Of a stretch of DNA of 64,000 bases, positions 29,759 to 58,945 are shown in pieces; position 1 is the first letter of the stretch; every line of letters starts with the position of its first letter. The notes beneath the pieces were generated by a model. The model saw only the letters and a list, made by a program, of their open reading frames with translations, searched no databases and was not told the origin of the DNA. Origin of the DNA: Kiritimatiellia bacterium (GTDB lineage Bacteria; Verrucomicrobiota; Kiritimatiellia; JAAZAB01); the NCBI GenBank assembly GCA_040767085.1, contig JAXGPF010000009.1, positions 2,307-66,306 of the forward strand, written 5' to 3'. The translations under genes and the position numbers were made by a program.

Positions 29759-29805
29759 CGTCCCCGGCGTCCGGCCCGGGCCGGCGCCGCCGGCCCGGCG
29801 GCGCC

Positions 29806-32106: not shown

Positions 32107-32109
32107 AAT

Positions 32110-42748: not shown

Positions 42749-43900
42749 TTATGACGACGCATCCCGCACTTTCTGGATGGGCAGGCCGCGCCGGATGTAA
42801 GTCGGCTTATCGAGGTTCTCGCTGTCCATGATTGTCGGCTCGACGCCATCAAACCGGCCGGCGGCATTGGCGCCGAACAAACTGAGCTGCGTGGCTTTGC
42901 CGCGCGGAACCGGCGATGGCGCCGGCGCGGTTTTGCCCACCGCCCCCAGCGCGGCGGGATTGGCGTCTTCCGCCAGGAACACCATGGCCCAGATTTTGCC
43001 GGTCAGCGCCGGATCGCAAGCCATTCCCGTCATCATTAACGCTTCCGCGCCGCCGTTGCCGCCCAGGCGCGCAACGATGTGCTGCGCTTCCCGCAGGGTT
43101 AAATCCGGGCCGCCGGAAATATTCAAAATGAAGGCGCGAGCTGCGCGCAATGCCGCCCCGCCGTCCAGCAAAGGGTGGTTCAACAAGGCCGCCGCCGCCT
43201 GTTCCGCCTTGTCGTCGCCCGCGGCTTCCGCGCAGGCCATCAGGCAGCGCCCGTTGCCCAGGCGCACCAGAGCGCATAAATCAGCGAAGGAAACGTTAAT
43301 CACGCCGCGCCGGGCCAGCAGGCGCCAGAGCGCCTGCAGGCAAGCGCGCAAGAAGTCATGCGCATTATCGAACAGGCGGTCCAGCGGGGCATCCTCCGCC
43401 GCGCCGGACAACAGGCGCTGGTTCGGCAGGCAGATTACGCCGTCCGCCGCCTCCTGCAAGGCCAGCAGCCCCTGCGCCGCCTGGTCCTGGCGGCGGCGGC
43501 TTTCGCAATCGAAAGGCAGCATGGACAGCGCCAGCGTCAAGGCGCCAAACTTACGGGCCTCGGCCATGATCATGGGCGCCGCCCCGGTCCCCGTGCCGCC
43601 GCCCAATCCCGTCGCCAGCAATACCAGCCGGGCCTGCTCCAGCCATGGCCGCAAGGCGGGCAGGTCTTCTTCCATGGCACGTTGACCCAGGCGGGGGTCG
43701 CCGCCCGTGCCCAGGCCATGAAGATGCCGCGCGCCGATTTGCAGGAATTGCACGCCGGCATCCGGCGGCATCTCGCGCGCTTCCGTGTTGACCGCCAGCA
43801 TTGGCGGATGCTCCGGCCAGGCGGAAGCCAACGCCGCGACGGCCGTGCAACCGCTGTCACCCACCCCGACAATCAACATATTCGTTGGCGGCATATCCAC
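42749..43900 (-). CDS. ftsZ: cell division protein FtsZ (divergent N-terminus and T1 loop)
   Basis: Tubulin signature GGGTGTGAAP followed by MIAEARKFGALTLALSMLPFDCESRRR, with near residue-by-residue correspondence to canonical FtsZ. The T1 loop is GVGDSGCTA instead of GGGGGNA. C-terminal LDKPTYIRRG resembles the FtsA-binding peptide. Located at the end of the dcw order. Confidence 0.8.
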   Translation of the reverse strand: MDMPPTNMLIVGVGDSGCTAVAALASAWPEHPPMLAVNTEAREMPPDAGVQFLQIGARHLHGLGTGGDPRLGQRAMEEDLPALRPWLEQARLVLLATGLGGGTGTGAAPMIMAEARKFGALTLALSMLPFDCESRRRQDQAAQGLLALQEAADGVICLPNQRLLSGAAEDAPLDRLFDNAHDFLRACLQALWRLLARRGVINVSFADLCALVRLGNGRCLMACAEAAGDDKAEQAAAALLNHPLLDGGAALRAARAFILNISGGPDLTLREAQHIVARLGGNGGAEALMMTGMACDPALTGKIWAMVFLAEDANPAALGAVGKTAPAPSPVPRGKATQLSLFGANAAGRFDGVEPTIMDSENLDKPTYIRRGLPIQKVRDASS

Positions 43901-43903
43901 CTT

Positions 43904-45112
43904 TCACCGTCCCATCCAGCGCGCCATTTTCTGCCAAAAACCCGGCGGGGGCGCGCGGCGCGCGTTCTTGATCGCATAGCGTATCATTCCCAGCGGGGCG
44001 GCATATTCGGGACCTTCGTAGGCATTGGCCATGCCGCTGTAATTCTTGGGCTTGCCGACGGAACAGGGCAAGTCAAACACCCGCTCCGCCACCCCGGCGA
44101 TGCCCTTGAGATGCGATCCGCCGCCGGCCAGGACCACGCCCGCGCCCAATCCCGGCACCAGGCCGCGGGCGTCAAGGTTGCGTTTGATAATTTCGAACAA
44201 TTCGCTCACCCGGGCGTTGATGATCGTGTAAAGATCGGCGGCGGAGATGGAACAGGCGGCGAAACCGCCCTCGGCATGGATCGTGATCCGCTGGAATGGG
44301 GCGCCGGAATTCATGATCTGGGCCGTGCCGTTTTCCTTTTTCAAGACTTCAGCCCGCTTCATCGGCAGGTTGAATCCCATGGCAATGTCATTGGTCACGT
44401 GATCGCCGCCAACCGCCAGGACGCCGACATCGGCGATGATGCCGTCATGGTAAACCAGATAACTGCTGGTGCCCGCGCCCAGGTCGATGACCAGCACCCC
44501 GCATTCCTTCTGCTCCGGCGTCAAGGTGGCCAGCGCGGAGCACAAGCCGCTGCAGGCGAGATCCGTGACTTCCAGGCCGACCGATTGCGCCGCATTTACA
44601 AACTGGCTGAGCAGGTTCCGCAAGCCATGCACGATCAGCATGTCCAGCGAAAGGCGGCTGCCCTGCATTTTTTCCGGGTTGACGATCCCGGTCTGGCTGT
44701 CCACGGTGTATTTCTGGGGAATGGAGTGCAGCACCTCGCGGTCATGCGGCAGGTTGATTGTCCGGGCGATGTGCATCACCTCGTTAATGTCCTCTTCCGT
44801 CACGCCGCGCAGGGCATCAAACACGGGCACGCTGCCGGGATTGATCACGCTCTGGATATGCCCGCCCGCGGCCACCAGGTTCACCGCGCGGATGTCCACG
44901 CCGCCGCTTTCCTCGGCGCCCCGCACGGCCAGCCGGACGCATTCCGCCGCCTTCTCGAGGTCAACGATGATGCCTTTGCGCACACCGCAGGAAGGGCATT
45001 GCCCCAGTCCGGTAATCAGGATGTTGCCATCTTCGCGCGCTTCACCTACCAGCGCGCAGATTTTTGCAGTTCCGATTTCCAACGCCACCACCGGCGGAAA
45101 TGACATAACCAC
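43904..45112 (-). CDS. ftsA: cell division protein FtsA
   Basis: Actin-fold motifs (VALEIGTAKICALVGE; VIDLGAGTSS) and its position between ftsQ and ftsZ. Confidence 0.85.
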   Translation of the reverse strand: MVMSFPPVVALEIGTAKICALVGEAREDGNILITGLGQCPSCGVRKGIIVDLEKAAECVRLAVRGAEESGGVDIRAVNLVAAGGHIQSVINPGSVPVFDALRGVTEEDINEVMHIARTINLPHDREVLHSIPQKYTVDSQTGIVNPEKMQGSRLSLDMLIVHGLRNLLSQFVNAAQSVGLEVTDLACSGLCSALATLTPEQKECGVLVIDLGAGTSSYLVYHDGIIADVGVLAVGGDHVTNDIAMGFNLPMKRAEVLKKENGTAQIMNSGAPFQRITIHAEGGFAACSISAADLYTIINARVSELFEIIKRNLDARGLVPGLGAGVVLAGGGSHLKGIAGVAERVFDLPCSVGKPKNYSGMANAYEGPEYAAPLGMIRYAIKNARRAPPPGFWQKMARWMGR

Positions 45113-45119
45113 TCCGTTG

Positions 45120-46016
45120 CTACTGCTGCGCCGGAAAATTATTTTCCAGCGTCATATTGAGGATTTTGAAGGCGCGGCCCTGGCGCTTGATATCCGCCAA
45201 CCGCTGTAATTTCTTCTCCAGATACTGGCGCGACAATGTGGAACGAAAGTTCATCTGCTGCCAGGCAAAGCGTACTTCGCTGTCATCTGCCAGCAGCAGA
45301 TTCAATTCTTCGGGCGCCCTCAAATCCACCCGCACGATATTCACATAACGTCCGGCCGGCGTGTTTTGGCAGGCGCCTAAAACATCCAGCGCCAGCATGA
45401 TCCGCGTGCCGCCCAGGTCCATGCCCGGACGCGCCAGAACCAGGTCATGCCCGGTAATCCAAGGCAGCCGGCGGGCGGCGTCCACCCCCCCCATGACCCG
45501 TCCTTCGGCATCGAGGGCCAGGGTGTATCCCTCCATTTTCAAACGCGCCAGAGCGGCCCGCTCCCGCGCCCGCACCAGCAACTGGCTGGGCAGGCGGCGC
45601 GATAATTCCACATCCTTGAGCTTGGGCAGCTTGGCCAGCAAGGCACGGCGGGCGACCGGCAGGCTGTCGGCAAAAAGGTTGTCCCCGGGACGAAACGGCA
45701 AAAACGCCAGGATATCCGCCTGGGCCACCTCGATCCCGGGGCATTCTACGCGGATGTCGCGGAGCGTAAAGAAGCGGTTGTTCCAGAAAAGCGCGCCGCC
45801 GATCGCATGAAATGTCATCCAGATGACCGTCAGCCCGGCGCCGAAAGCGAGCGCGATCACCGCCACGGCCGCGCCTTTGCGCCAATTCCAGCGGCTGCCG
45901 CCGTCCCGCCGCATTTTAACTTCCAGGATGGACGGCCGCGCCGCAGCCGCGCGCCGGCGCGCGCCGCGGCGCTCTCGTTGAATTTGCTGCCTGCGCTTGA
46001 AAAACATCGCGCCCAC
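45120..46016 (-). CDS. ftsQ: cell division protein FtsQ/DivIB (POTRA)
   Basis: Basic N-terminus, single TM, then a POTRA-like region (FFTLRDIRVEC...). Sits in the dcw position. Confidence 0.65.
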   Translation of the reverse strand: MGAMFFKRRQQIQRERRGARRRAAAARPSILEVKMRRDGGSRWNWRKGAAVAVIALAFGAGLTVIWMTFHAIGGALFWNNRFFTLRDIRVECPGIEVAQADILAFLPFRPGDNLFADSLPVARRALLAKLPKLKDVELSRRLPSQLLVRARERAALARLKMEGYTLALDAEGRVMGGVDAARRLPWITGHDLVLARPGMDLGGTRIMLALDVLGACQNTPAGRYVNIVRVDLRAPEELNLLLADDSEVRFAWQQMNFRSTLSRQYLEKKLQRLADIKRQGRAFKILNMTLENNFPAQQ

Positions 46017-46100
46017 CCTCCGTCATCGCGCTGGTTGATCCCGTCGATTCCCGCGCCAGTTTTGCCGCCGGTTTTTACCGTTCCGCATGTATCCGGCCGG

Positions 46101-47009
46101 CTAAGCCGGCGCCGGAATTTCCGCCAGCGCCAGTTCCATGATCCGACGGCACAAATCCGCGAACGGCAGACCCGCGGCGGCCGCGGCCTTCGGCAGCAGG
46201 CTGGTTTCGGTAAAACCGGGAATGGTGTTCAATTCCAGCGCGAACAACGCGCCATCATCGCGCAGACGGAAATCCACCCGGCCGAACCCGCGTCCGCCTA
46301 AAACCTGAAACGTCCGGACGGCCAAATCCTGGCAGCGCCCTGCGGTTTCCTCCGGGAGGGGCGCGGGGGCGAGGTATTCCGTCACGCCCTGGGTATACTT
46401 GGCGCGGTAATCGTAGTTGCTGTCGGGCGCGCGGATTTCCACCACCGGCAATGCCTGGCCGCCCACAATCCCCACCGTCAACTCGCGCCCCGGAATGTAT
46501 TCCTCGACCACCACCGCGCCGTTATAAGCCATGGCGTCCGCCAGCGCGGCGTCCCATTCCGCTTCACGGAGCACCCGGTGCACACCGAAGCTCGATCCCT
46601 GGCGCGGCGGTTTAACCACAGCCGGCAAGGGCATCTGACGGCGTCCGCCGGGTTGCAGCACTTCGTATCCCGGCGTGGGGATGCCGTTGGACAGCATGGC
46701 TTGCTTGGAAAGTATTTTGTCGAAAGCCAGCCGGCTGGCTGCCGGCCCCGAGCCGGTGTAAGGCACCCCCAACACTTCCAGGCGTTCCTGCACGGCGCCA
46801 TCCTCGCCGAATTCACCGTGCAGCGCGATGAACGCCGCCTGCGCGTTTTCCGGCAGAACCAGTTCCGGTCCGGTGATATCAACTTCCTCGACCATGTAGC
46901 CAGCCTGGCGCAAACCGCGCGCCACAGCCGCGCCGGAACGCAGCGACACTTCGCGTTCCTTGGAAAAACCGCCCATTAAAACCGCAATTGTAGCACCCAT
47001 ATCAATCAC
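46101..47009 (-). CDS. ddl: D-alanine--D-alanine ligase
   Basis: ATP-grasp motifs (ALHGEFGEDGAVQ; GVPYTGSG; ELNTIPGFT). Confidence 0.85.
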   Translation of the reverse strand: MIDMGATIAVLMGGFSKEREVSLRSGAAVARGLRQAGYMVEEVDITGPELVLPENAQAAFIALHGEFGEDGAVQERLEVLGVPYTGSGPAASRLAFDKILSKQAMLSNGIPTPGYEVLQPGGRRQMPLPAVVKPPRQGSSFGVHRVLREAEWDAALADAMAYNGAVVVEEYIPGRELTVGIVGGQALPVVEIRAPDSNYDYRAKYTQGVTEYLAPAPLPEETAGRCQDLAVRTFQVLGGRGFGRVDFRLRDDGALFALELNTIPGFTETSLLPKAAAAAGLPFADLCRRIMELALAEIPAPA

Positions 47010-49380
47010 AATATACTATCTCGCGGACAAGCTCAATATCAAAACCGACCGACACTCTTTTTTTCATGATTTCGATCAGCGCCCGGATATCCGATGCCGT
47101 GGTTCCGGCCTCCGCCGTGATCACATTGGCGTGGGTTTCAGCCACCCGCGCGCCGCCGACCGCCAGGCTTTTGCAGCCGGCAGCCTCCAGCAGGCGGCCG
47201 GCATAATCGCCCGGCGGATTGCGGAACACCGAGCCGGCGGAGGCGCCCCAATGCATTTTGCCGCGGCGCGCTGCTATCTCCGCCAGGCGCCGGCGAATTT
47301 CCGCGGGCGCCGCCGGAACTGCCTGTAAAACCGCGCCAACCGCCACCCTTTGATCCAGGCCCCGGCAAGCGCGGTATCCGAATCCCAGTTCCGCCGCCGC
47401 CAGATCGCTGGCAACGCCGGTCCGGTCCAAACACAGAGCCGAGGTCACGCAGGTTCCGATGGCCGCGCCCCAGGCGCCGGCGTTCATGCGCAATGCGCCG
47501 CCCACCGTGCCGGGAATACCGTGTAAAAATTCCAGTCCGCCCAGGCCCTGTTCCGCGCACCAGGCGGTCAACTCCGCCAGCCGTACCCCGGCGCCCGCCT
47601 CCAACCGGTCCGGGCCCAGTCGGCGCAGTTGCCGGAATCCTTCGCCCGTCAGGCGCAGGACCAGCCCGCGCACTCCCAGATCACTGACCAGCACATTACT
47701 GCCGGCGCCCAGGCAGGTCACCGGCACCTGGCAGCGCGCGGCCCAGCGCAAGACGGCGGCGGCATCCGCCGGATCCCCCGCATCCACCAGCATGTCGGCC
47801 GGTCCGCCCACGCGCCAGGTAGTGCAGGCTGCCAACGATTGCCACGCCTGCCAGCGCGTGGCAGGACCCAATTGCAGCCGGACCAGTTCATCCCGCCACC
47901 CGGGAATCGGGTTCAAAGCCGTCCCCGTCCGCGCGGAATCCAGGGCCGCCGCCGCCCAATCCGCCAGGCGCGCCACATCGCCGGCGCCCGCCACCAGCAA
48001 ATCGTCGCCCGCCGCCAGCGTCCGCCGCAAATATTCCCGGATTTGCTCCATTTCGGCCGCCAGTACGCGCGGCGGCGCGACATTGGACCGGCGGAAAGCG
48101 GCGTACAAATCCCAGACCGTGCCGCCCGCGTCTGCCGTCTCCGATGCCGCGTAAACCGGCGCCAGCAGCAATTCATCCACGCCGGCAAATGCCCCCGGGA
48201 AAGCCTCCGCCAGCGCCCGGGTACGGGTATGACGGTGCGGTTGATACACCATTATACGCCGGCGGGCCGGACCGGCATCGCCGCCTGGATGCGGCAACCG
48301 GCCGAGCATGCCGACGGCGGCCGCGATTTCCGTGGGATGATGGGCGTAATCCGAAAACACCCGGATTGCGGCGGAAGCGTAAATTGTTTCGAACCGCCGG
48401 CGCACCGGCACAAAACCCGCCAGGGCGCGCGCTGCTCCCGCCGGCGCGCAACCCAGCGCCCGGGCGGCGGCGCAGGCGGCCAGGGCGTTCAAGGCGTTGT
48501 GGCGGCCCGCCACCGGCAGCGCCAATTCCATGTCCGGCGCATCCGGCCAGCGCACCCGCAGCCGGATGGACTGTCCGTCATCGCGTAAATCGACGCCGCA
48601 CACGGCGGCGCCGGGTGCAAAGCCATAACCAACCGCCCCGGGTATTCTGGCGCCCAGTTCCGCCGCCGCGGGGTCATCGGCGCAGTAAACCACGCGGCGG
48701 CGCGTACGCGCCAAAACCGCGGCAAAACATGCGCGCAATTCATCCAGACTGGCATAATGCTCGGCATGGTCAAATTCCACGTTAGTCAAGACCGTCACAT
48801 CGGGGGCATAGTCCGCGAGCGTCCCATCGCTTTCATCGGCCTCGGCAACGCAAAGCCGGGCGCCGTTGCCCCGGCCGGCCACACCGTCAAAGGCCGGGCA
48901 ATCGCCGCCGATGCACCAGGCCGGCGCCAGACCGCATTGCCGTAGAATCTGGGTCAGCATGGCCGCGGTGGTGGTTTTGCCGTGGGTGCCGCAAACCGCC
49001 GCGGCGGTCCGTCTCTTCAACCAGGCGGCCAACACCGCGCCGCGCTGGTAAACCGGCAGACCCGCCGCCGCCGCCGCGCGCAATTCCGGATGCGAGACCG
49101 GCACGGCGGTGCTGCGGATCAGCCAGTCTACGCCTGTCAAATGCTCCGCGGAGTGCCCCGTGAATACTTGCACGCCGCGCTCCGCCAGCCAACCGGCCAG
49201 CCGGCTGCCGCCGCGGGCGGCATCGCAGCCGCTGACTGCCCAACCGTCGCACCGCAACTGGTAAGCCAAGCCGGCCAGGCCGACGCCGCAGACCCCGAGA
49301 CAATGCACATGTCCGCCGGGGTGCGCCAGCAGGCGCGCCAGCGCGGCCTGCTCACCGTGCTGATGACTGCCTGGGTCCAT
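47002..49380 (-). CDS. murC/murB: fused UDP-N-acetylmuramate--L-alanine ligase / UDP-N-acetylenolpyruvoylglucosamine reductase (MurC-MurB)
   Basis: 792 aa. Residues 1-~470 carry Mur ligase motifs (VCGTHGKTTTA; DESDGT). Residues ~480-792 carry the MurB FAD-binding and substrate domains (TTWRVGGPAD...GAGSNVLVSD; MNAGAWGAAIG; SAGSVFRNP). Confidence 0.8.
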   Translation of the reverse strand: MDPGSHQHGEQAALARLLAHPGGHVHCLGVCGVGLAGLAYQLRCDGWAVSGCDAARGGSRLAGWLAERGVQVFTGHSAEHLTGVDWLIRSTAVPVSHPELRAAAAAGLPVYQRGAVLAAWLKRRTAAAVCGTHGKTTTAAMLTQILRQCGLAPAWCIGGDCPAFDGVAGRGNGARLCVAEADESDGTLADYAPDVTVLTNVEFDHAEHYASLDELRACFAAVLARTRRRVVYCADDPAAAELGARIPGAVGYGFAPGAAVCGVDLRDDGQSIRLRVRWPDAPDMELALPVAGRHNALNALAACAAARALGCAPAGAARALAGFVPVRRRFETIYASAAIRVFSDYAHHPTEIAAAVGMLGRLPHPGGDAGPARRRIMVYQPHRHTRTRALAEAFPGAFAGVDELLLAPVYAASETADAGGTVWDLYAAFRRSNVAPPRVLAAEMEQIREYLRRTLAAGDDLLVAGAGDVARLADWAAAALDSARTGTALNPIPGWRDELVRLQLGPATRWQAWQSLAACTTWRVGGPADMLVDAGDPADAAAVLRWAARCQVPVTCLGAGSNVLVSDLGVRGLVLRLTGEGFRQLRRLGPDRLEAGAGVRLAELTAWCAEQGLGGLEFLHGIPGTVGGALRMNAGAWGAAIGTCVTSALCLDRTGVASDLAAAELGFGYRACRGLDQRVAVGAVLQAVPAAPAEIRRRLAEIAARRGKMHWGASAGSVFRNPPGDYAGRLLEAAGCKSLAVGGARVAETHANVITAEAGTTASDIRALIEIMKKRVSVGFDIELVREIVYCD

Positions 49381-49403
49381 TGCTACTCCTCGGATCAGTC
49401 CCG

Positions 49404-50525
49404 TCAGACTGATCCGTCTGATCCGGTAATTTTCACGGCGCGGCGCCGCGCAACATCCTGCACCAGGTCCGCCACGCGGGCGGCGGCATCCGGCAGCGCG
49501 CGCGCGGCGGCCGCCGCGCGCATCTGCGCCAGGCGCTCCGGTTGATCCATGGCCTGGGCGATATAATCCGCCAGACGGACGCTGGTGGCGTCAGCCTCCC
49601 GCAGCATATCCGCGGCGCCATATTCATGCATTGCCGCCGCATTGGCCGCCTGGTGGTCATTGGCGGCATAAGGATAAGGCACCAGCAGCGCCGGCACGCC
49701 GAACTGGAGCAGTTCGGCGCAAGTCGCTGCCCCGGCGCGGCAGACGGCCAGGTTGGCCCGCCGGTAAGCCTGGGGCATATCGTGCAGAAAAGGGTAAACC
49801 GCCGCCGGCTGTCCGCGGTCTTGACGGTATAGTTCCTCCACCGCGGGCGCCTCCGCGGCGCCGGCCAGATGGATGACCTGCAGCCGGCGGCCCTGGCGGC
49901 ATAGTTCCTGCACGGCGGCCGGCAGCATCTCGTTCAGGCGGCGGGCGCCGGCGCTGCCGCCCATGACCAGCAGGGTAAAAACTCCGGCGGGCAACGCTGC
50001 CAGCCTGGCATCCGGAATGGCATCCGGCCGGCGGGCGCGCAAAGGAACGCCGGTCAGCTCGAAGCGGGGATGGCGCAAATGGGCGCGCGCCTCGTCAAAT
50101 CCCAGGGCCACCGCCTGCGCCCAGCGTGACAGCCACCGCACCGCCCGGCCGGGAATAACGTTCGCCTCGTGCAGCACCACCGGCACGCCCAGCGAACGCG
50201 CCGCCAACACCGGGCCGCCGGAGGCATAACTGCCCATCGCCAGCAGCACATCCGGCGGCGCGGCGCGCATCAACCGGCGCCATTGGCGGCAGGCCGCCAG
50301 CATCCGCCAGGCGGACGCCAACACCGCGCCGGGCCGGCGCCCGCTCAGGCCGCGGGCAGCCACGGTTAAAACCGGGCCATCCCAGCCGGTCAGCGCCGTT
50401 TTTTCGACTTGCCTGCCGGCCAGCAAAATCGTCACATCGGCGCCGCGTTCGCGCAGCTCCGCCGCCACCGCCAGTCCGGGGAAAATATGTCCGCCGGTCC
50501 CGCCGCAGGCCACCATAATCCGCAT
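49404..50525 (-). CDS. murG: UDP-GlcNAc--undecaprenyl-PP-MurNAc-pentapeptide GlcNAc transferase
   Basis: MRIMVACGGTGGHIFPGLAVA N-terminus and a GT28 C-terminal domain. Confidence 0.85.
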   Translation of the reverse strand: MRIMVACGGTGGHIFPGLAVAAELRERGADVTILLAGRQVEKTALTGWDGPVLTVAARGLSGRRPGAVLASAWRMLAACRQWRRLMRAAPPDVLLAMGSYASGGPVLAARSLGVPVVLHEANVIPGRAVRWLSRWAQAVALGFDEARAHLRHPRFELTGVPLRARRPDAIPDARLAALPAGVFTLLVMGGSAGARRLNEMLPAAVQELCRQGRRLQVIHLAGAAEAPAVEELYRQDRGQPAAVYPFLHDMPQAYRRANLAVCRAGAATCAELLQFGVPALLVPYPYAANDHQAANAAAMHEYGAADMLREADATSVRLADYIAQAMDQPERLAQMRAAAAARALPDAAARVADLVQDVARRRAVKITGSDGSV

Positions 50526-50539
50526 GCTTCACTCCAAGA

Positions 50540-51304
50540 TCAAGCGGTGCGCGGCGGCGGTTGGCGTCCCAGCCGCTGCAACACCTGCAGCATATCAATC
50601 CAGACATCTTTTTTGGCGGCGGGATTGCGCAGCAGGTAGGAAGGATGGTAAGTCGGCATCAAAGGAATACCGTCAAATTCCAGCCAATGGCCGCGCACGC
50701 GGCTGATCCGGAACTCGGGGCCGGGCTGCAGCAATCCTTCCACCGCCGTGGCGCCCAGCGCCACGATGACCCGCGGGCGCAAGGCCGCGATTTGCGCTTT
50801 CAGAAAAGGCAGGCAGACTTGCATTTCCGCCGGTTCCGGCTTGCGGTTATTGGGCGGCCGGCATTTGAGGATGTTGCCGATAAACACCTCGCGGCGGGTG
50901 AAGCCCATGGCCTCGATCATGCGCGTGAGCAATTGGCCGGCGCGGCCGACAAACGCCTCGCCCCGCAAGTCCTCTTCTTCCCCCGGCGCCTCGCCGACAA
51001 ACATCAGCTCGGGATGGAGGTTCCCCTGCCCTGGAACGGTCTTGGTGCGGGTGCGGTGCAGGACGCAGCGCTTGCAGCGGGCGATCTCGGCCGCCAGCCC
51101 GGCCAGGGTTTCCGCCGCGGCTGCCGCCGCCGGTGCGGCCGGTATGGGTTCCAGCGGGGGCGCCGGAGCGGGCGCGGGCGGGTCCGGCCGCCGGGCGCGG
51201 TAGATTTCCCTGACTCCGCATTCCTTCAAATCAGCGACATGCCCGGCCAGATTATCCAACAGCCCGGCCAGCGCGGCGGCGGGCGTTTTATCCGGCTGCT
51301 TCAT
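50540..51304 (-). CDS. uracil-DNA glycosylase, family 4 (with N-terminal Ala/Pro-rich extension)
   Basis: Family-4 motifs GEAPGEEEDLRGEAFVGRAGQLL and HPSYLLRNP. Internal Met chosen as start. Coordinates taken from the ORF track. Confidence 0.65.
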   Translation of the reverse strand: MKQPDKTPAAALAGLLDNLAGHVADLKECGVREIYRARRPDPPAPAPAPPLEPIPAAPAAAAAAETLAGLAAEIARCKRCVLHRTRTKTVPGQGNLHPELMFVGEAPGEEEDLRGEAFVGRAGQLLTRMIEAMGFTRREVFIGNILKCRPPNNRKPEPAEMQVCLPFLKAQIAALRPRVIVALGATAVEGLLQPGPEFRISRVRGHWLEFDGIPLMPTYHPSYLLRNPAAKKDVWIDMLQVLQRLGRQPPPRTA

Positions 51305-52037
51305 ATTGGCGTCTCTTCCGCAGGCTGACGAACATCGGTCCGAAAACGACATAGATCACGCCCAACAGCAGCATGACCAATGCAGCGGCGGGCGCCAGAT
51401 GCAAATCCCGCAAAAACAACATCGCCACCAGCGCGACGCACGGCACAAAAATCCCCATCGCCTTGGTCGGCTTGGGATAATGCACATTCGAGACCTGCAG
51501 GGTGATCATCGCCACCACGCCGGAAAGGAACACCAGCGCCACCGGTCCCTGTTTCAACTGGAAATAATCGCCCAGCACGCCGGTTTGTTCGAGGAAAACG
51601 AAAATCGCCACCCAGCCGGCGCTGGCCGTGATGGGCAGTCCGCAATAGCCGCCCTGTCCGCGCAGGGGATCCTTGACCTTGAAACGCGCCAGCCGGATGA
51701 CGCCCGAGAGCACAACCATGGCGGTCATCAGCACACGCCACCCGATGAAGGACTGGAGCGATACCTGGTAAATCAGGATGGCCGGCGCCAGGCCGAAGGC
51801 GGTCATATCCACGTACGTATCCAGTTCGGCGCCGAACGGGCTGGTGCCCCTGATGCGCCGGGCCAGGTTGCCGTCCAAGCCGTCCAGGATCATCGCCAGC
51901 ATGATGAACTGGGCGGAGAGCATGAAATGCGCTTCACCCTCCAGGGCCAGCAGCATGCTGAAAAATCCGCAAAGCATTGCAAAAAGCGTAACCGCGGTCG
52001 GCAGTAATTGGCGCCAAGTCATACATAACCTTTCCAT
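51288..52037 (-). CDS. pssA: CDP-diacylglycerol--serine O-phosphatidyltransferase (CDP-alcohol phosphatidyltransferase family)
   Basis: CDP-OH P-transferase motif DGLDGNLARR...GAELDTYVD. The ORF's upstream start is TTG at 52151; ATG at 52037 (or 52022) is the more likely start. Confidence 0.7.
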   Translation of the reverse strand: MERLCMTWRQLLPTAVTLFAMLCGFFSMLLALEGEAHFMLSAQFIMLAMILDGLDGNLARRIRGTSPFGAELDTYVDMTAFGLAPAILIYQVSLQSFIGWRVLMTAMVVLSGVIRLARFKVKDPLRGQGGYCGLPITASAGWVAIFVFLEQTGVLGDYFQLKQGPVALVFLSGVVAMITLQVSNVHYPKPTKAMGIFVPCVALVAMLFLRDLHLAPAAALVMLLLGVIYVVFGPMFVSLRKRRQYEAAG

Positions 52038-52154
52038 GGGCGTCGTCTGCGAAACGCGCAAGACAATTCGATCATAAAATCCCGCCGGTATCAGGCAGCA
52101 TGGATAGCAGGATACCGCCGGACATGTCAAGCGCAAAGCGCCCGGCGGCAAGCA

Positions 52155-54122
52155 TTATTCCGCCGGCGCGGCGGGCGGCAGCGACACGGCCGGCGGCATG
52201 GCATCTCCGATCGCCTTGTCCCGCCAGCGGCTGGTCAGGGCGGCGGCTTCCTCGCGGGTGCGCGCCACGCTCGGCGTGACAAAGATCAGCAGGTTGGTGC
52301 GTTCGATACCCTTGACCGAATGCCGGAAAATCCAGCCCAGCAGCGGAATCGAACCCAGGAACGGCACGCGCCGCTCCTTTTCCACGTTGTCCTCGCGGAT
52401 CAGGCCGCTGATTACAATCGTTTCGCCGCTGGGAACGGTCAAGGTGGTGGTCACCTCCCGGCGGGCGATCGTCGGAGTGAAGGCCTTGCCGTCGGTGGTG
52501 GCTTCCAGCACGGCTTCAATGCTGGGATTCAGGCGCATGCACACTTCGCCGTCCGGGTTGACCTGGGGCGTCACTTTCAACTTGATCCCCACGTCAATCC
52601 GGTCAATGTTTTCGATCACGTCGCGCGCGGTGCCGGAGCCGCCTTCAATGGTGGATTTCAGGATGGGAATGTTTTTGCCGATGGTAACGCTGGCCTCCTG
52701 GTTGTTCTGCGCCCATAAGGGCACGTTGGACAGGATTTTAAAATTCGATTCGTATTTCAGCGCGTTGACATTCATCAAAAACGGAAAACGCGGCACGACA
52801 TTGCCGTTGGCGTCGGTGTAACTGCCATTGGCCAGGCCGAAAGTCAGCCCCTGCGGCACCACGCCCTGCACGACTTGCGCCAGCAGCCGATCCTCGCCTT
52901 CGGCGGCGCGGGAACCGCCGACGATGACGGTCGAGTCCTGTTCCGGCGAGGCGGAGGATAGGAATTCGGCGCCGTAATCATGGCCGTCGCCGAGGGTCAA
53001 TTCCGCGATCATGACCTCCACCAGCACCTGGGGCGGCGGCAGATCCAGTTTTTCAACGAGCTGGCGGACCATTTCAAAATCCTGGGGAGCGGCATCCACC
53101 ATCAGCGCGTTGTTGGCCAGGTTGGCCTCGATGGCGATGATCGAGCGGTCGGCGTTTTTCTCGGCGTTGCGCGCCAGCAGCGCGGTCAGGCTTTTGGCGG
53201 CGTCTTCCGCCGAAAGGTACTTCAGGAAAATGGCCTGCAGATGGCCGCTGACCGCCTGGGCTTCCACGTCCAACCGGGCGATCAAATCCTTGATTTCGGC
53301 CACCTGCGCCGGGGTGCCGGCCAGGATCAGGCTGTTGGAATGCGGCGCGGCCACAACTACGGCGTCGGCCAGCCCGCCGCCGCCGCCCTCGCTGCGCGCC
53401 AGGCGCTGCCGGATGCGCTCGCCCTCGGTGTCCGCCCGCGAGCGCAGGCCGCTGAGGGCCTGGTTCAATTCGTCCGCCATGTTGCGCGCGACCGCGTGTT
53501 TCAGGGCATGGAGTTCGGTCACGCGCGCGGCGCCCGGCTGGTCAATCTGGGCGATCACGGCCTCCAGGCGGCGGATATTGTCCGCCGTATCGGTCACCAC
53601 CAGGTGGTTGGTGGTTTCCAGCGCCGCCAGGGCGCCGCTTTTGCCGCCATCCACCATCGGCTCCAGCATGCGGCGCAACTCCGCCGCGCTGACATGCGCG
53701 AGCCGGATGACCTTGGTCACCAGCGCGCCGCCGGCAGGCGATGCATCCGGCGGGAGTACCGGCGCCGCGGGGACAGGGCGCGGCGCCCGCACCACCACCC
53801 GGCAGACGCCGTCCTGCTCCAGCACGGCGTAGCCGGCGGCTTCCAGCACGGCCAGCAGCAGCGGATACACCTCGGATGCGGGAATTTGCGCGGGGGTGAC
53901 GACCGTCACCTTGCCTTCCACGGCGGGATCTACCACGAACCGCCGACCGGTAATGTCGCCCGCCAGCTTGACCAGGAACCGCACTTCCACCTGGTCGAAG
54001 TTGAAATTGACGAAAGTGGACTGGCCGGCGGCGGCCGCCGGCGGCGTTTCGGCGCGACCGAGCGGCAGCAGGCAGAGAGCCGCCGCCAGGCCGATATGCG
54101 GCATGTAAAAACAGCGTCGCAT
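52155..54122 (-). CDS. secretin (GspD/PilQ superfamily, T2SS-type N0/N domains)
   Basis: Signal peptide. N0-like domain (VNFNFDQVEVRFLVKLAGDITGRRFVVDP). Canonical secretin C-domain (GETIVISGLIREDNVEKERRVPFLGSIPLLGWIFRHS...TNLLIFVTPSV). Confidence 0.8.
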   Translation of the reverse strand: MRRCFYMPHIGLAAALCLLPLGRAETPPAAAAGQSTFVNFNFDQVEVRFLVKLAGDITGRRFVVDPAVEGKVTVVTPAQIPASEVYPLLLAVLEAAGYAVLEQDGVCRVVVRAPRPVPAAPVLPPDASPAGGALVTKVIRLAHVSAAELRRMLEPMVDGGKSGALAALETTNHLVVTDTADNIRRLEAVIAQIDQPGAARVTELHALKHAVARNMADELNQALSGLRSRADTEGERIRQRLARSEGGGGGLADAVVVAAPHSNSLILAGTPAQVAEIKDLIARLDVEAQAVSGHLQAIFLKYLSAEDAAKSLTALLARNAEKNADRSIIAIEANLANNALMVDAAPQDFEMVRQLVEKLDLPPPQVLVEVMIAELTLGDGHDYGAEFLSSASPEQDSTVIVGGSRAAEGEDRLLAQVVQGVVPQGLTFGLANGSYTDANGNVVPRFPFLMNVNALKYESNFKILSNVPLWAQNNQEASVTIGKNIPILKSTIEGGSGTARDVIENIDRIDVGIKLKVTPQVNPDGEVCMRLNPSIEAVLEATTDGKAFTPTIARREVTTTLTVPSGETIVISGLIREDNVEKERRVPFLGSIPLLGWIFRHSVKGIERTNLLIFVTPSVARTREEAAALTSRWRDKAIGDAMPPAVSLPPAAPAE

Positions 54123-54895
54123 CAGCGGGCAATTCCCCGTTCCGAAGCCTCGATAAATTCTATCAGGTGCTGCACTTCCGGCGCCAGCGGCACATTTTGC
54201 CGGATTTTTTCCAGGGCCTGGCGCGTGTTGAGGTTTTCGCGGTACAAAATCCGGTAGGCTGTTTTCAGATGCTGGCGCGCCTCATCGGAGATCCCGCGCC
54301 GCTGGAGGGCGACGGCATTGACGCCATGCACCGCCGCGGGATTGCCGTCAGCCATCATGTACGGGGGGATATCCTGGGTGGCCTTGGAACAGCCGCCCAT
54401 GATGGACATGCGGCCGATGCGCACAAACTGGTGCACGCCGCACAAGCCGCCGATGACGGCGAAATCCTCCACCGTCACATGGCCGGCCAGGGTGCCGGCA
54501 TTGGAAATGATCACGCCGTTGCCCACCGTGCATTGATGCGCCACATGCGAATAGGCCATGATGTGGCACCCCTCGCCCACCCGCGTCACATCGCCCTCGT
54601 TGGTGCCGGAGTTGACGGTGACATATTCCCGGAGCGTCGTGCGCGCGCCGATTTCCACAAAAGTTTTCCCGCCCTTGAACTTCAGGTCCTGCGTCTGCGA
54701 GCCGATGCTGGCGAACGGGAAAATCACGCAATCCGGGCCGATAGTCGTATGCCCATCCAGGAAAACATGCGGCATGACGCGCGTCCGCGCCCCCAGCCGC
54801 ACATGCGGCCCGACGATCGCATAAGCGCCGACCGCCACGTCCGCATCCAGCTCCGCGCCGGACTCGATAACCGCGGTGGGATGAATCAGGGTCAT
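54122..54895 (-). CDS. lpxA: acyl-ACP--UDP-N-acetylglucosamine O-acyltransferase
   Basis: Left-handed beta-helix hexapeptide repeats starting MTLIHPTAVIESGAEL, catalytic His region (MAYSHVAHQC), and C-terminal helical domain. Confidence 0.85.
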   Translation of the reverse strand: MTLIHPTAVIESGAELDADVAVGAYAIVGPHVRLGARTRVMPHVFLDGHTTIGPDCVIFPFASIGSQTQDLKFKGGKTFVEIGARTTLREYVTVNSGTNEGDVTRVGEGCHIMAYSHVAHQCTVGNGVIISNAGTLAGHVTVEDFAVIGGLCGVHQFVRIGRMSIMGGCSKATQDIPPYMMADGNPAAVHGVNAVALQRRGISDEARQHLKTAYRILYRENLNTRQALEKIRQNVPLAPEVQHLIEFIEASERGIAR

Positions 54896-55338
54896 ACCCC
54901 GGCCTTTTCCGTGGTAAACATGAACATCAATTCGGCTTCCGAAGCCGGTTGGCCGTCCACCAGCACGCGCCCCTGGACGCGCACCACCCGGGCGCGCCGG
55001 TTCAGCATGGTCACTTCAATCCGCATGGCATCGCCCGGCACGATCGGCCGGCGGAAACGGGCCTTATCGATCGCCATGAAAAGCGGGACCTGGCCCTTGA
55101 TGCCGGTCTGCCGGCTGAGGAGGATGCCGCCGGCCTGGGCCATGGCTTCGAGCTGCAGCACGCCCGGCATGATCGGGCGCCCGGGAAAATGTCCGTTGAA
55201 AAAAGGCTCGTTGATGGTGATGTTCTTCAGGGCCACGATGCGGTCCTTGTCGTCGCATTCCAGCACGCGGTCCACCAGGAGCATCGGGTAGCGATGCGGC
55301 AGGATTTGCATGATTTCATCAATCTCAATTGTCGTCAT
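54892..55338 (-). CDS. fabZ: 3-hydroxyacyl-ACP dehydratase
   Basis: Hot-dog fold motifs ILPHRYPMLLVDRV and FFNGHFPGRPIMPGVLQLEAMAQ. ATG at 55338; the longer ORF upstream runs into the tRNA. Confidence 0.85.
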   Translation of the reverse strand: MTTIEIDEIMQILPHRYPMLLVDRVLECDDKDRIVALKNITINEPFFNGHFPGRPIMPGVLQLEAMAQAGGILLSRQTGIKGQVPLFMAIDKARFRRPIVPGDAMRIEVTMLNRRARVVRVQGRVLVDGQPASEAELMFMFTTEKAGV

Positions 55339-55410
55339 AAAGGCTCCCCTTCTGCTGCATCGCGTTCCCTGCCGACGGCGGCCAACGCTGCTCGTTTGAC
55401 TGCTTTTCAA

Positions 55411-55502
55411 TGGCGGAGGGAGAGGGATTTGAACCCCCGGTGCCCTTGCGAGCACACATGATTTCGAGTCATGCGCATTCAACCGGACTCTGCCATCCCT
55501 CC
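55411..55502 (-). tRNA. tRNA-Ser (anticodon CGA) with long variable arm
   Basis: Reverse complement reads GGAGGGATGGCAGAGTCCGGTTGAATGCGCATGACTCGAAATCATGTGTGCTCGCAAGGGCACCGGGGGTTCAAATCCCTCTCCCTCCGCCA. It has a 7-bp acceptor stem, an anticodon stem CATGA/TCATG with loop CTCGAAA, a long extra arm, a T-arm GGTTCAAATCC and an encoded CCA. Confidence 0.75.
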
Positions 55503-55811
55503 TTGGATGCCTGCTTTACGCTGGAACGCCCAGCGGGCCGGCACAACTGGAATTCAAGATACAAAAACCGCGCAAGGCAGTCAACGCTAATTACCGCCGG
55601 GAGGCGCCGGAAGCAGGGCTGCGTCATGCTCCCGCGCCTTGCGCGCCGTTCCGGATCAGAAGCGGCCAAGGGACCCAGGCTTTGCCAAGGCTACGCCCGG
55701 CGAAGTCCGGCTTTGCCGGACTCAGCCGGGCAAGCAGCACCGAGCCGTTTTTTCCGAGAATGACGCAGCCCTGGCGCTGGAAGGTGGGCATGGCAGATTT
55801 GGGGGCAGCGG

Positions 55812-55960
55812 CAATGCGGTTTTTTTGAACAGAAGGCGGAACAAGGATTTTTCGGATTCTTGAACAGAAGACGGAATAAGGGCGGAACAAGGATTGTTCG
55901 GATTTTTGAATCGAAGTCGGAATAAGGGCGGAACAAGAGGAATATTTTTTCAAACCGGCA
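55812..55960. repeat. three imperfect tandem repeats (about 35-46 nt units) carrying five copies of CGGAAYAAG
   Basis: Units begin TTGAACAGAAGGCGGAACAAGG / TTGAACAGAAGACGGAATAAGGGCGGAACAAGG / TTGAATCGAAGTCGGAATAAGGGCGGAACAAGAGG. Lies in a lower-GC intergenic region upstream (5') of tRNA-Ser. Confidence 0.5.
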
Positions 55961-56001
55961 CCTTCGTCCGGCTTTGCCGGCTTCCGCCTTATGTTCAATT
56001 C

Positions 56002-57117
56002 TCAGTTTTTGGACATATCGGCCAAACACAAGCCGTTTTCCCGCATCCACCGGCCGACGGCATGAAACCTTTCCGGCGCCACCGCTATGCCGTCCGCAAA
56101 CGGGCACAGAACAAAATTCGCCTGCCTGATCCGGGGGGTCAGCAAACGGTCCAGGGCAGCCGGAATTTCATCGAGGCGGCCGGCGGCAAAGATCGTGGGA
56201 TCAAGGCATCCGAGGATGATCAAATCTTCTCCCAGCACATCCAGGGCGTCAGCCCAGGGCGTATTCCCGGTGGGCGGCGGAGTCAGGGCATGGATGCCGT
56301 CGCAACCGGTTTCCTTGATCAGGTCCAGGATGCCGTGCACATGCCCGCACATGTGCAGCAGGGCGGTTTTGCCGTTGGCCTTCACCGCGTCCACGAAATC
56401 ACGCTGGTGCGGCATATTGTACCGGCGGTAGACTTCCGGACTGATGTAATACGTGCTGGTGTTTTCGGCCAGCATCACGGAATCGCAGGGCGTACGGGCC
56501 AGGATGTCAAAGGCCTGCCGCTCGCGCTGATGGATGGCCTGGATCAACCCATGGACTTCCGCTGGATGATCGGCCTGCAGGTAATAAAAATTCTCCGTCC
56601 CCATGTCCAGTTCCAGCAGGCGCGGAATGGTGGAAGGTCCCCAGAAACGGGTAACCACGCCGTGTTCCCCGATTAAAGCGTTTAACGCCGCCAGGGCGGC
56701 GGAATCGTCATGCGCCGTGAATGTCGCGCCTTCCCACATGTCCCGGTAAATCAGCACCGCCTCCAGGGAATCCACCGGGAATTTGACGGGATGCGCGCCA
56801 TCCTGAATCCCGGTCAGCGCACCCCGGGGTGTCTGCCAGCGGGTGGTCTTCCGGGAGCCTTCGCGTTCATGGCGGATTTCCACGAAATCCGGCCATCGCA
56901 GCGACGGCGATCGGAACGCGTAAGGAGTATTCCAGCCATCCAGCATGAAAATATCGCAGCCGATGTGCTTGTAAAAATCAATGCCGCCGTGGCCGCGCTG
57001 CTCGGCTGGCAGCAAGGCCAGCGTGGCATCGTCCACGAGCGTGGTCCAGGACAAGCGGTCTTTGGGCTGCTTGCGCAACACGGCTTCCAGGCGTTCACGT
57101 CCGGTCATACTTGGCAT
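56002..57117 (-). CDS. uroporphyrinogen decarboxylase (URO-D)-family protein (methyltransferase MtaA/CmuA-like)
   Basis: 371-aa ORF with overall URO-D/MtaA-like TIM-barrel pattern (e.g. LLHMCGHVHGILDLIKETGCDGIH). Confidence 0.5.
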   Translation of the reverse strand: MPSMTGRERLEAVLRKQPKDRLSWTTLVDDATLALLPAEQRGHGGIDFYKHIGCDIFMLDGWNTPYAFRSPSLRWPDFVEIRHEREGSRKTTRWQTPRGALTGIQDGAHPVKFPVDSLEAVLIYRDMWEGATFTAHDDSAALAALNALIGEHGVVTRFWGPSTIPRLLELDMGTENFYYLQADHPAEVHGLIQAIHQRERQAFDILARTPCDSVMLAENTSTYYISPEVYRRYNMPHQRDFVDAVKANGKTALLHMCGHVHGILDLIKETGCDGIHALTPPPTGNTPWADALDVLGEDLIILGCLDPTIFAAGRLDEIPAALDRLLTPRIRQANFVLCPFADGIAVAPERFHAVGRWMRENGLCLADMSKN

Positions 57118-57278
57118 ACCTCCATTGTATTGTTACGGTGCAGGATATCGCCGACGCTGTCCAGGATGTGATTCGGGCGGTCGGCGAAACGCGCCAGGCT
57201 CGACCGGCTGGTCACGCCGGTCAGCACGAGCACGGTCTCAATTTCAGCTTCAAAGCCGGCGACGATGTCGGTATCCAT
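57105..57278 (-). pseudogene. C-terminal fragment of a HAD-IIA (NagD-like) hydrolase gene (remnant)
   Basis: 57-codon ORF translating to MDTDIVAGFEAEIETVLVLTGVTSRSSLARFADRPNHILDSVGDI..., which aligns with the NagD-family C-terminus (GDNLRTDILAGFQAGLETILVLSGVS...). No N-terminal HAD motifs (DxDG) are present upstream. It lies in the same frame just after the lpxA-paralog stop. Confidence 0.35.
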
Positions 57279-57293
57279 TCGGCCACCGTAAAT

Positions 57294-58112
57294 TCAGGTT
57301 TCAGCCCCGGCATCCCCACCGGCATCGCCGCGCCCATGGCCGTGGCGGCAGATGCCGCGCTTGGAAGCCTCCACGAAATCCGCCAGTTCGCCGGCCGGGC
57401 CGGCGGGACACTCGCCGCGGATGGCCGCTGCCGCCTGGCTGAAATTCATATCGGAAAGGTAGAGCATCCGGAAGGCGCGTTTGAGCGCCAGGCGGTCCGC
57501 CGGCGGCATGCCGGCGCGGCGCAAGCCGACGATATTCAACCCGGCCACCTGGTTGAGGTGCAGGCTGGCCACCGTGCAGAATGGCGGCACATCCTTGCTG
57601 ACGCCGCTGCCGCCGCCAAGCATCGCCAGGCGTCCCACGCGGACGAATTGATGCACCATGCAATTGCCGCTGAGAAACGCGCCGGCGCCGATTTCAGCGT
57701 AGCCGCCCAGCAGCACGCCGTTGGCGAGGATGACGCGGTCGCCCAGCCGCGAATTATGGCCGACATGGCTGTTGGCCATCAGAAAACACCCGGCGCCAAT
57801 TTCAGTCGCGGTGCCGGGCTTGGTGCCGCGGTGCACCGTCACCCCTTCGCGGAGGACGCAGGCGCCGCCGATCCGGACGTAACTTTCACGGCCGTCGAAG
57901 GCCTTATCCTGCGGCAGGTCGCCCAGCACGGCATGGGCATGCACGCGGCAGCCGGCGCCCAGGGTAGTGTGCCGCAAAATCGCCGCATGCGGGCCGATGA
58001 CACAGCGGTCGCCGATCACCGCGCCGGCTTCGACAACCGCCAGCGGGCCGACCGTCACCTCGGCGCCTAATTCCGCCTGCGGACTGACCACTGCCGTGGG
58101 ATGAATGCTCAT
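57294..58112 (-). CDS. second LpxA-family acyltransferase paralog
   Basis: MSIHPTAVVSPQAEL hexapeptide-repeat beta-helix. MANSHVGHN catalytic region. LpxA-like C-terminal helices (ADFVEASKRGI) followed by an atypical ~18-aa Gly/Asp-rich tail. Confidence 0.7.
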   Translation of the reverse strand: MSIHPTAVVSPQAELGAEVTVGPLAVVEAGAVIGDRCVIGPHAAILRHTTLGAGCRVHAHAVLGDLPQDKAFDGRESYVRIGGACVLREGVTVHRGTKPGTATEIGAGCFLMANSHVGHNSRLGDRVILANGVLLGGYAEIGAGAFLSGNCMVHQFVRVGRLAMLGGGSGVSKDVPPFCTVASLHLNQVAGLNIVGLRRAGMPPADRLALKRAFRMLYLSDMNFSQAAAAIRGECPAGPAGELADFVEASKRGICRHGHGRGDAGGDAGAET

Positions 58113-58195
58113 ACATGTCCTTGTATTTCATTTCCGCTCCGGCATGGAGCGCGCGGGAATCATATGCGCCCGGGACGCCAAAATCAAAATTATTT

Positions 58196-58945
58196 TCACG
58201 TAAAATCCACCAGGCCCTTTTCGCGGACGCTGACGAAGTCCCGCTCGGCGCCGCCGGCGCGCCCCAGCACCACGTGGTCGAGCACACGGATGGAGATGAT
58301 TTTGCCGGCATCGATCAACTGGCGGGTGATGTGCAAATCTTCCGCGGAAGGCGTCGGATCGCCGGAGGGATGGTTATGGGCCAGGACCACGGCGGCGCTG
58401 GCGGCCTGGATGGCGGCGCGGAAGACTTCGCGCGGATGCACCAGGCTGGCGTTCAGCAAGCCGCGGCTGACGGGTATCGGCCGCCCCTGCAGGCGGTTCT
58501 TGGTGTTCAGCAGCAAAACCCAGAAAGTTTCGCCCTTCAGCACCCGCGCATCTTCGCGGAGCGCCGCCGCCACGTCGGCGGGGGTGCGGATGGCCGGCGC
58601 CTCTTCGAGTTTCTCGTCCGCCAGCCGCCGCCCCAGTTCCAGCGCCGCCTTCAACACCTGAGCCTTGACCGGCCCGAGGCCCGGCCCCCGCAATTCCCGT
58701 TCCGATGCCGCCGCCAGTTCCGAAAGCGAACCATAGCGCCGCAGCAGACGCCGGGCGAGTTCCAGCACATTCAACCCGCGCGTGCCGCTGCGGAGGATGA
58801 TGGCCAGCAGGACGTCGTCTTCCACGGAATCCACGCCGAAACGCTCCAGCAATTCGCGCGGGCGCTGGCAAGCCGGCAAATCGCGCAGGCGGTAAACAAC
58901 ATCCTCCGGCGGGGATGGCGCATCAGGCTGAGTGGTCTTTTTCAT
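58196..58945 (-). CDS. radC: RadC-family JAB/MPN domain protein
   Basis: HhH N-terminal region and JAMM motif (VLAHNHPSGDPTPSAEDLHITRQL). Confidence 0.8.
   Translation of the reverse strand: MKKTTQPDAPSPPEDVVYRLRDLPACQRPRELLERFGVDSVEDDVLLAIILRSGTRGLNVLELARRLLRRYGSLSELAAASERELRGPGLGPVKAQVLKAALELGRRLADEKLEEAPAIRTPADVAAALREDARVLKGETFWVLLLNTKNRLQGRPIPVSRGLLNASLVHPREVFRAAIQAASAAVVLAHNHPSGDPTPSAEDLHITRQLIDAGKIISIRVLDHVVLGRAGGAERDFVSVREKGLVDFT

Follow-up and report, generated by a model that had tools for sequence, protein, structure and literature searches.

The locus described here raises the question of why a secretin gene should lie between lpxA and a pssA-like gene, in a string of genes for lipid A synthesis and cell division. 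The DNA is from a member of the Kiritimatiellia, which belong to the PVC group. An earlier note on this DNA took the secretin to be an orphan that forms a constitutive outer-membrane channel. Adjacency to gspE and gspF is typical for secretins of the type II secretion system (T2SS), but it is not what defines the protein, and comparison with relatives makes it very probable that the gene is an ordinary T2SS gspD in its ancestral place behind lpxA, which only looks orphaned after a rearrangement in this lineage moved gspE and gspF. The window referred to below is the whole 64-kb stretch of DNA that was analysed.

Genetic organisation of the locus

The features of the region are as follows.

54892..55482, minus strand: fabZ, longest ORF (Pfam FabA, 1.4e-35, residues 61-183)
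54122..54895, minus strand: lpxA, acyl-ACP--UDP-GlcNAc O-acyltransferase (NCBIfam LpxA equivalogs)
52155..54122, minus strand: gspD, predicted T2SS secretin, 655 aa (Pfam, NCBIfam, full-length alignment to solved GspD)
52023..52154, minus strand: gspD-pssA spacer, 132 nt, with a promoter-like block and a weak terminator-like hairpin
51288..52022, minus strand: gene for a pssA-like CDP-alcohol phosphatidyltransferase (Pfam CDP-OH_P_transf; NCBIfam pssA)
42749..51352, minus strand: UDG, murG, murC-murB fusion, ddl, ftsQ, ftsA and ftsZ (Pfam)

The genes form a co-directional string, fabZ, lpxA, gspD, pssA-like, UDG, murG, murC-murB (a fusion predicting a protein of 792 aa), ddl, ftsQ, ftsA and ftsZ, and the Pfam annotation agrees with the order given in the earlier note. 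The secretin gene had also been described as the only secretion gene in this string, which is correct and holds for all 64 kb. Neither gspE nor gspF was detected in the window by Pfam annotation or by tblastn searches with GspE and GspF of relatives, a six-frame scan of it for prepilin-type leader motifs revealed no prepilin-type genes, and no other secretion-machine gene was found there.

With the two NCBIfam LpxA equivalogs, whose cut-offs are 226 and 231 bits, the lpxA product reaches 356 and 334 bits. The true start of fabZ may be at about position 55333. fabZ shares 4 nt with lpxA, and base 54122 is common to the TGA of lpxA and the ATG of the secretin gene (sequence GCCCGCTGATGCGACGC), which is the 1-nt overlap that had been claimed. 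This overlap suggests that gspD may be co-transcribed with lpxA and translationally coupled to lipid A synthesis. Coupling to fabZ and lpxA would give gspD a housekeeping level of expression, and the term constitutive may fit in that sense, for a T2SS component only.

The secretin is predicted to be GspD

The protein was described in the earlier note as a full-length GspD-type secretin, and its domain order is that of one: an apparent N-terminal Sec-type signal, N0, N1-N3, the secretin domain and a short C-terminal tail. The N-terminus, MRRCFYMPHIGLAAALCLLPLGRA/ETPP, resembles a Sec signal by eye. Pfam matches are to type_II_gspD_N0 (PF21305) at residues 40-109 (69.4 bits), to Secretin_N (PF03958) in three stretches (133.7 bits) and, over the full profile, to Secretin (PF00263) at residues 454-620 (152.9 bits against a cut-off of 27.5), all of them far above the gathering cut-offs. 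The N0 and Secretin_N regions can be aligned to N0-N3 of solved GspD, and no AMIN domain was found in the Pfam scan, so that the domain check proposed in the earlier note, N0-N3 against AMIN, comes out on the side of GspD.

Among the curated NCBIfam models, the GspD equivalog TIGR02517 scores 415.7 bits and passes its cut-off of 351.35. Identity as PilQ was rejected on a score of 217.7 bits, which is below the cut-off of 284.35, and identity as a type III secretion system secretin likewise, the SctC model giving 135.8 bits against 238.45. MshL reaches 125.6 bits (cut-off 250.2) and HofQ is also under its cut-off. The top matches among solved structures are T2SS secretins (E = 1e-57 to 1e-62, query residues 34-635), while solved PilQ matches at E of about 1e-27 and InvG at 1e-13. 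Homology to the solved GspD structures is unambiguous at the level of sequence, and all of the sequence-level tests that were run for GspD were passed. All residues that are invariant in a 21-sequence family alignment are present.

An exact-sequence look-up of the window secretin matched no record. Its nearest homologs are 94-50% identical, and those that are named are recorded at NCBI and JGI as 'type II secretion system secretin GspD' from metagenome-assembled genomes (MAGs) of Kiritimatiellia or Kiritimatiellae. The source MAGs of some homologs are loosely labelled Verrucomicrobiota or Lentisphaerae.

The domain order N0-N1-N2-N3-secretin is common to the window secretin and proteobacterial T2SS secretins, namely GspD of Vibrio cholerae (EpsD/GspD, 5wq8) and Escherichia coli (5wq7, 5zdh), PulD of Klebsiella pneumoniae (6hcg) and XcpQ of Pseudomonas aeruginosa (5wln). 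The likeness to PilQ of type IV pili lies in the homologous C-terminal secretin domain, but pilM-P genes are not adjacent to the window gene. A secretin taken over by another filament machine, whether a type IV pilus, an MSHA or Tad pilus, a DNA uptake apparatus or a filamentous phage, could explain the setting insofar as the secretins of such systems are homologous, the PilQ, MshL and HofQ models give sub-threshold matches and a gene for an MshEN-domain protein lies 23 kb off. However, this is highly improbable, given that the GspD equivalog alone passes its cut-off, that N0 and three N-domains are present and AMIN is not, that there are no pilin-like genes nearby, and that the ATPase encoded next to the orthologous secretins has GspE, not PilB, as its best model.

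Gene order in relatives

The window proteins were mapped onto a sample of 80 loci, one genome per species, of which 77 had enough upstream sequence and 76 any downstream room. The gene directly upstream of the orthologous secretin gene is lpxA in 76 of the 77 species, and in nearly all relatives lpxA is in turn preceded by fabZ. In 55 of 76 loci, the secretin gene has a possible start that overlaps the stop codon of lpxA or is no more than 10 nt away from it. Directly downstream, tblastn detected gspE in 71 of 76 loci, followed by gspF wherever the sequence allows. Gene calls in two distant relatives show the same downstream arrangement, with gspE (MshEN and T2SSE domains) and then gspF (T2SSF).

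An independent sample was drawn from JGI metagenome loci anchored on gspE, using as query a GspE from the window clade (P0239, described below). About 33 of the 35 Kiritimatiellia-like loci with upstream room carry gspD-gspE-gspF, with or without fabZ-lpxA in view. Loci with GspE identities of 40-51% include secretin genes, and neither lpxA nor fabZ adjoins them. From the position of lpxA and gspE in the species sample together with the metagenome loci, the ancestral, class-wide unit is fabZ-lpxA-gspD-gspE-gspF, and the lpxA-gspD junction is its most stable part.

Representatives of this unit (L083 of GCA_936417635.1, and L081/L082) encode secretins 46-65% identical to the window secretin. They share with the window the upstream fabZ-lpxA and the overlapping lpxA/gspD junction, whereas the window and its close relatives have (psd)-pssA-UDG and the dcw genes in place of gspE-gspF. 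The Kiritimatiellia cluster differs from the proteobacterial arrangement in consisting only of D, E and F, with the G-M genes absent beside the loci examined, and in being joined to fabZ-lpxA instead of forming a separate gsp operon. Next to the window gspD, E and F are missing as well. The proposed conservation of lpxA-secretin-pssA in relatives therefore stands for the lpxA-secretin part, but the pssA junction is found in a single nested clade only. The orphan channel itself finds no counterpart in these data, since gspE-gspF come directly after the orthologs in 71 of 76 loci, and nothing points to independence from a T2SS.

A derived arrangement in one nested clade

In a neighbour-joining tree of 84 secretins, the window sequence groups with those of L001-L004, L084 and L085 in one clade. 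The arrangement with (psd)-pssA-UDG-dcw after the secretin gene is restricted to a single nested monophyletic clade comprising the window, L001, L002, L004 and L084. L001, L002 and L004 are the only sampled loci with the order pssA-UDG-murG after the secretin gene, and their secretins share 89% identity or more with that of the window. L084 has fabZ-lpxA-secretin-psd-pssA-UDG, and its secretin is 71% identical by BLASTP and 73% in the multiple alignment. In the group that encloses the window clade, gspE is downstream in each of the remaining 17 members that could be scored, and the same is true of the deeper groups. The pssA-type junction is the derived state. It spans secretin identities of 69-95%, indicating that the rearrangement is old and not an assembly artefact.

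A single rearrangement that broke the unit just after gspD, bringing the block from (psd)-pssA-UDG-murG to ftsZ to that point, would give rise to the present order. The gspE gene would now be elsewhere in the genome, and the secretin would be unmoved and unchanged in function, having lost only its neighbours.

Using GspE of a neighbouring lineage as query, a small, GC-rich GspE clade was found that is unlike any gspD-linked copy. It consists of P0239, P0223 (82% identical to P0239) and P0229 (75%), and it mirrors the secretin clade. P0239, for which GspE is the best curated model, is encoded on contig CAZYXU010000007.1 of assembly GCA_964650945.1. L004 (CAZYXU010000037.1) is from that MAG too. 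The genome in which GspE was found is a sister genome, with a secretin 89% identical to that of the window, and not the window's own. Neither a secretin gene nor gspF lies within 10 kb of the P0239 gene. P0223, its closest relative, is on a 378-kb contig. A metagenome scan with P0239 detected no close relative, the best match being 65% identical. In L086, where gspE stands alone, a 434-aa protein encoded upstream of it was considered as a divergent GspF and was rejected for want of any similarity to GspF.

As evidence that would count against its reading, the earlier note had named a complete T2SS or T4P operon elsewhere that lacks its own secretin, and this is essentially what was found, in the form of a clade genome with a GspE that has no secretin beside it. 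However, the direction of movement is the reverse of a relocated secretin: gspD is in the ancestral place, and gspE and gspF have moved.

Dispersal of gspF in neighbouring lineages

A profile built from nine GspF sequences was used to search for gspF, and the four most divergent or GC-rich matches were looked up. All four belong to other lineages, and gspF of the window clade was not found by this search. Pseudopilins, gspC/L/M and a prepilin peptidase of the window clade were also not found.

Two of the four, P0296 and P0290, are from the L022 lineage, in which gspD-gspE stay behind lpxA without gspF, and an intact gspF is found alone beside gyrB-gyrA. The other two, P0288 and P0289, are from ordinary gspE-gspF arrangements. 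L174 has no gspF after gspE, and in L087 and L088 gspF is alone, adjoining gyrBA. The clusters of L050 and L113 are also broken up, as possibly is that of L036, where the secretin gene is followed by one for a DNA methylase and the downstream sequence extends for only about 2.7 kb. The window's part of the tree thus shows recurrent dispersal of the T2SS core. Such dispersal does not imply loss, since the displaced gspF of the L022 lineage is intact, and a complete T2SS would be expected in the window's organism.

Constraint on the stranded secretin

Pairwise comparisons of the window secretin gene with those of L001, L002 and L004 gave dN/dS values of 0.10-0.12 at dS of 0.32-0.63. The values for lpxA (0.10-0.13) are alike. 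In a relative-rate comparison, identity to outgroup secretins is equal for rearranged (50.2%) and unrearranged (49.2%) lineages. The secretin is under purifying selection and its rate is not accelerated, with no sign of decay or of a new function.

These values bear on the possibility that the T2SS is decaying, with gspF or other parts lost after the break-up and the secretin gene a remnant that is turning into a pseudogene. The missing gspF of the clade is what such decay would leave, and break-up of the cluster recurs in neighbours (the lineages listed above). Decay is nevertheless very unlikely: the secretin gene has an intact reading frame, three genome pairs give a dN/dS of about 0.1 with dS of up to 0.63, and the gene is retained in every clade member across 69-95% secretin identity. 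In addition, GspE is intact and 82% conserved between two clade members, and where gspF is displaced, in the L022 lineage, it is intact too.

The gspD-pssA spacer

The start of the pssA-like gene was placed at position 52022, at the methionine of MTWRQLL (MTWRQLLPTAVTL...), which is the start of the gene call in L084. The longest ORF begins just past the secretin stop, and this start was rejected by comparison with L084. The NCBIfam pssA model gives 99.4 bits, slightly below its cut-off of 107.

The 132-nt spacer includes a perfect TTGACA (52130-52125) separated by 18 nt from TATCCA (52106-52101), which is preceded by TG. In an alignment with the spacers of L001 and L002, both hexamers are invariant and the sequence between them is variable. 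A weak terminator-like hairpin follows at 52098-52082. The spacer folds no better than shuffled sequences (z = -0.93), and promoter and terminator scans of positions 50000-58500 were not above shuffles. The conserved hexamers form a putative promoter between gspD and pssA.

The gspD-pssA joint is also looser than the tight joints of fabZ, lpxA and gspD. Co-transcription of gspD with pssA and the division genes, as the earlier note had proposed, is doubtful in view of the 132-nt spacer with its conserved promoter-like block. A secretin that functions on its own, independently of any T2SS, as a constitutive channel of the outer membrane co-expressed with lipid A and division genes, would suit a gene that is tightly coupled to lpxA, has no other secretion gene within 64 kb and belongs to a clade whose gspF was not located, but it is the least probable of the readings considered, as gspE-gspF follow the orthologs in 71 of 76 relatives, GspE is kept elsewhere in a clade genome, the rate and constraint of the secretin did not change after the split, all N-domains are retained and a promoter-like block precedes the pssA and dcw genes.

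Predicted role and significance of the lpxA-gspD linkage

As an ordinary T2SS component, GspD would cross the inner membrane through Sec and, like the GspD channels of solved structure, would assemble as a multimeric, gated pore in the outer membrane. The N-domains of known GspD contact the inner-membrane platform, and those of the window protein would be expected, from what is known of the family, to dock there. Judged by family membership, folded periplasmic proteins would be pushed through the pore by the pseudopilus, with GspE powering the process and GspF forming the platform. The gene would accordingly not represent a new kind of outer-membrane channel, only a T2SS secretin minus its neighbours.

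Kiritimatiellia break down polysaccharides, for which they probably rely on enzymes that they secrete. A T2SS has been reported in the genome of the cultured relative Kiritimatiella glycovorans, together with many sulfatases bearing signal peptides (PMC5148204), which fits a secretion-dependent lifestyle. This genome paper, which mentions the T2SS, was the only one found in the literature searched on the T2SS or secretin of Kiritimatiellia and on lpxA-gspD (PMC5148204), and no description of lpxA-gspD coupling in the class was found in that literature.

That gspDEF is joined to fabZ-lpxA in nearly every Kiritimatiellia species is a modest comparative curiosity. It is conceivable, though on balance rather unlikely, that the fusion is functional and not a frozen accident, with a constitutive T2SS driven from a lipid A or housekeeping promoter and the supply of secretin matched to the synthesis of outer-membrane lipid. 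If so, gspD would remain tied to lpxA even where gspE and gspF have been torn away. Conservation of gene order alone is not a mechanism. For the few Kiritimatiellia in culture, the linkage could be of use in mapping operons and in studying the secretome. The locus also calls for caution with 'orphan' secretins of draft genomes, which need to be checked against relatives before new roles are assigned to them.

Accessory genes elsewhere in the window

Further genes with some T2SS-like features are found at the following positions.

28904-29758, plus strand: TPR and MshEN-domain protein (Pfam), 23 kb from gspD
30386-31300, minus strand: T2SSB-like protein (T2SSB, PF16537, 27.5 bits against a cut-off of 28.4, sub-threshold)
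31297-32106, minus strand: ExeA-family AAA_22 ATPase, 269 aa (AAA_22, 93.9 bits)
32110-32988, minus strand: TPR protein (Pfam)

The earlier note had placed a GspA/GspB-like pair about 20 kb from the secretin gene. A pair consisting of an AAA_22 ATPase and a T2SSB-like protein is indeed present 21 kb from gspD, but the match to GspA/GspB is only loose. As in ExeA/ExeB (GspA/GspB) of Aeromonas, an ExeA-type AAA_22 ATPase adjoins a protein with a T2SSB-like C-terminus. However, the T2SSB match is below the Pfam cut-off, the Pfam scan found no peptidoglycan-binding domain in the ATPase, and the NCBIfam model that the latter matches best, that of the PEP-CTERM-associated ATPase, gives 305 bits where the cut-off is 324.5. 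The cluster from 28904 to 32988 is best described as loosely T2SS-like accessory genes, with a possible role in secretin assembly.

Break-up of the T2SS core in relatives

The lineage neighbouring the window's clade (L022 lineage) has a fabZ-lpxA-gspD-gspE unit that lacks gspF (locus L174, 6772-11593), and there a solo, intact gspF adjoins the divergently oriented gyrB-gyrA genes (L087, 6148-7362; L088, 7929-9143). In this region of the Kiritimatiellia tree the T2SS core was dismantled in steps and more than once. No secretin gene lies upstream of gspE-gspF in L118 or, over the 10 kb before gspE, in L113. The D-E-F order is also broken in L050 (5971-8537), where genes for an unknown protein and for a phosphoglucomutase come after the secretin, and possibly in L036 (7781-9283), where the next gene encodes a DNA methylase that may have been inserted. 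L078 (9426-11824), where fabZ directly precedes gspD, is the sole species locus without lpxA found between them.

The surroundings of gspD and gspE may retain traces of how the cluster was split. These are URO-D-family genes, listed below, and opposite-strand shikimate-pathway genes that follow gspE in L086 (DHQS, DeoC) and L174 (DHquinase_I).

Window 56002-57117, minus strand: URO-D-family gene just upstream of fabZ-lpxA-gspD
L081 3873-6506: URO-D-family gene(s) just upstream of fabZ-lpxA-gspD
L086 3718-5953: URO-D-family gene(s) just upstream of a solo gspE

Junction between gspD and pssA

Two members of the window's clade, with secretins 89% (L004) and 71% (L084) identical to that of the window, carry a further gene between the secretin gene and pssA.

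L004 4792-5472: psd, phosphatidylserine decarboxylase
L084 3318-4001: psd, phosphatidylserine decarboxylase

At this position the window, L001 and L002 lack the gene, and no psd occurs anywhere within the 64-kb window. The secretin-pssA junction has therefore changed a second time, after the rearrangement itself. The 132-nt spacer between gspD and pssA in the window includes a promoter-like block.

52101-52130, minus strand: conserved block of TTGACA, 18 nt and TG-n-TATCCA

When the window, L001 and L002 were compared, both hexamers were invariant and the spacer between them was variable. The block probably serves pssA and the dcw genes as a promoter.

Genes on the dcw side

50540-51352, minus strand: uracil-DNA glycosylase superfamily gene, flanked by pssA and murG where the dcw cluster begins
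47002-49380, minus strand: MurC-MurB fusion, a single 792-aa ORF

The position of the first is kept in L001, L002, L004 and L084. In the second, Mur ligase N, M and C domains make up the MurC part, and FAD_binding_4 and MurB_C the MurB part; Verrucomicrobium is known to have a MurB/C fusion.

Other genes in the window

The window encodes a pair of LpxA paralogs separated by 2.4 kb, and both exceed the NCBI LpxA equivalog cut-offs (~230 bits). L001-L003 likewise carry the second copy.

57294-58112, minus strand: LpxA paralog, 288 bits
54122-54895, minus strand: LpxA paralog, 334-356 bits

The cluster at 28904-32988 comprises an ExeA-like ATPase, best matched by the XrtA/PEP-CTERM-associated ATPase TIGR03015 at just under cut-off, and two TPR proteins, one of which bears an MshEN domain (c-di-GMP-binding type). 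The cluster may be an exopolysaccharide or PEP-CTERM-type module and not a T2SS accessory pair.
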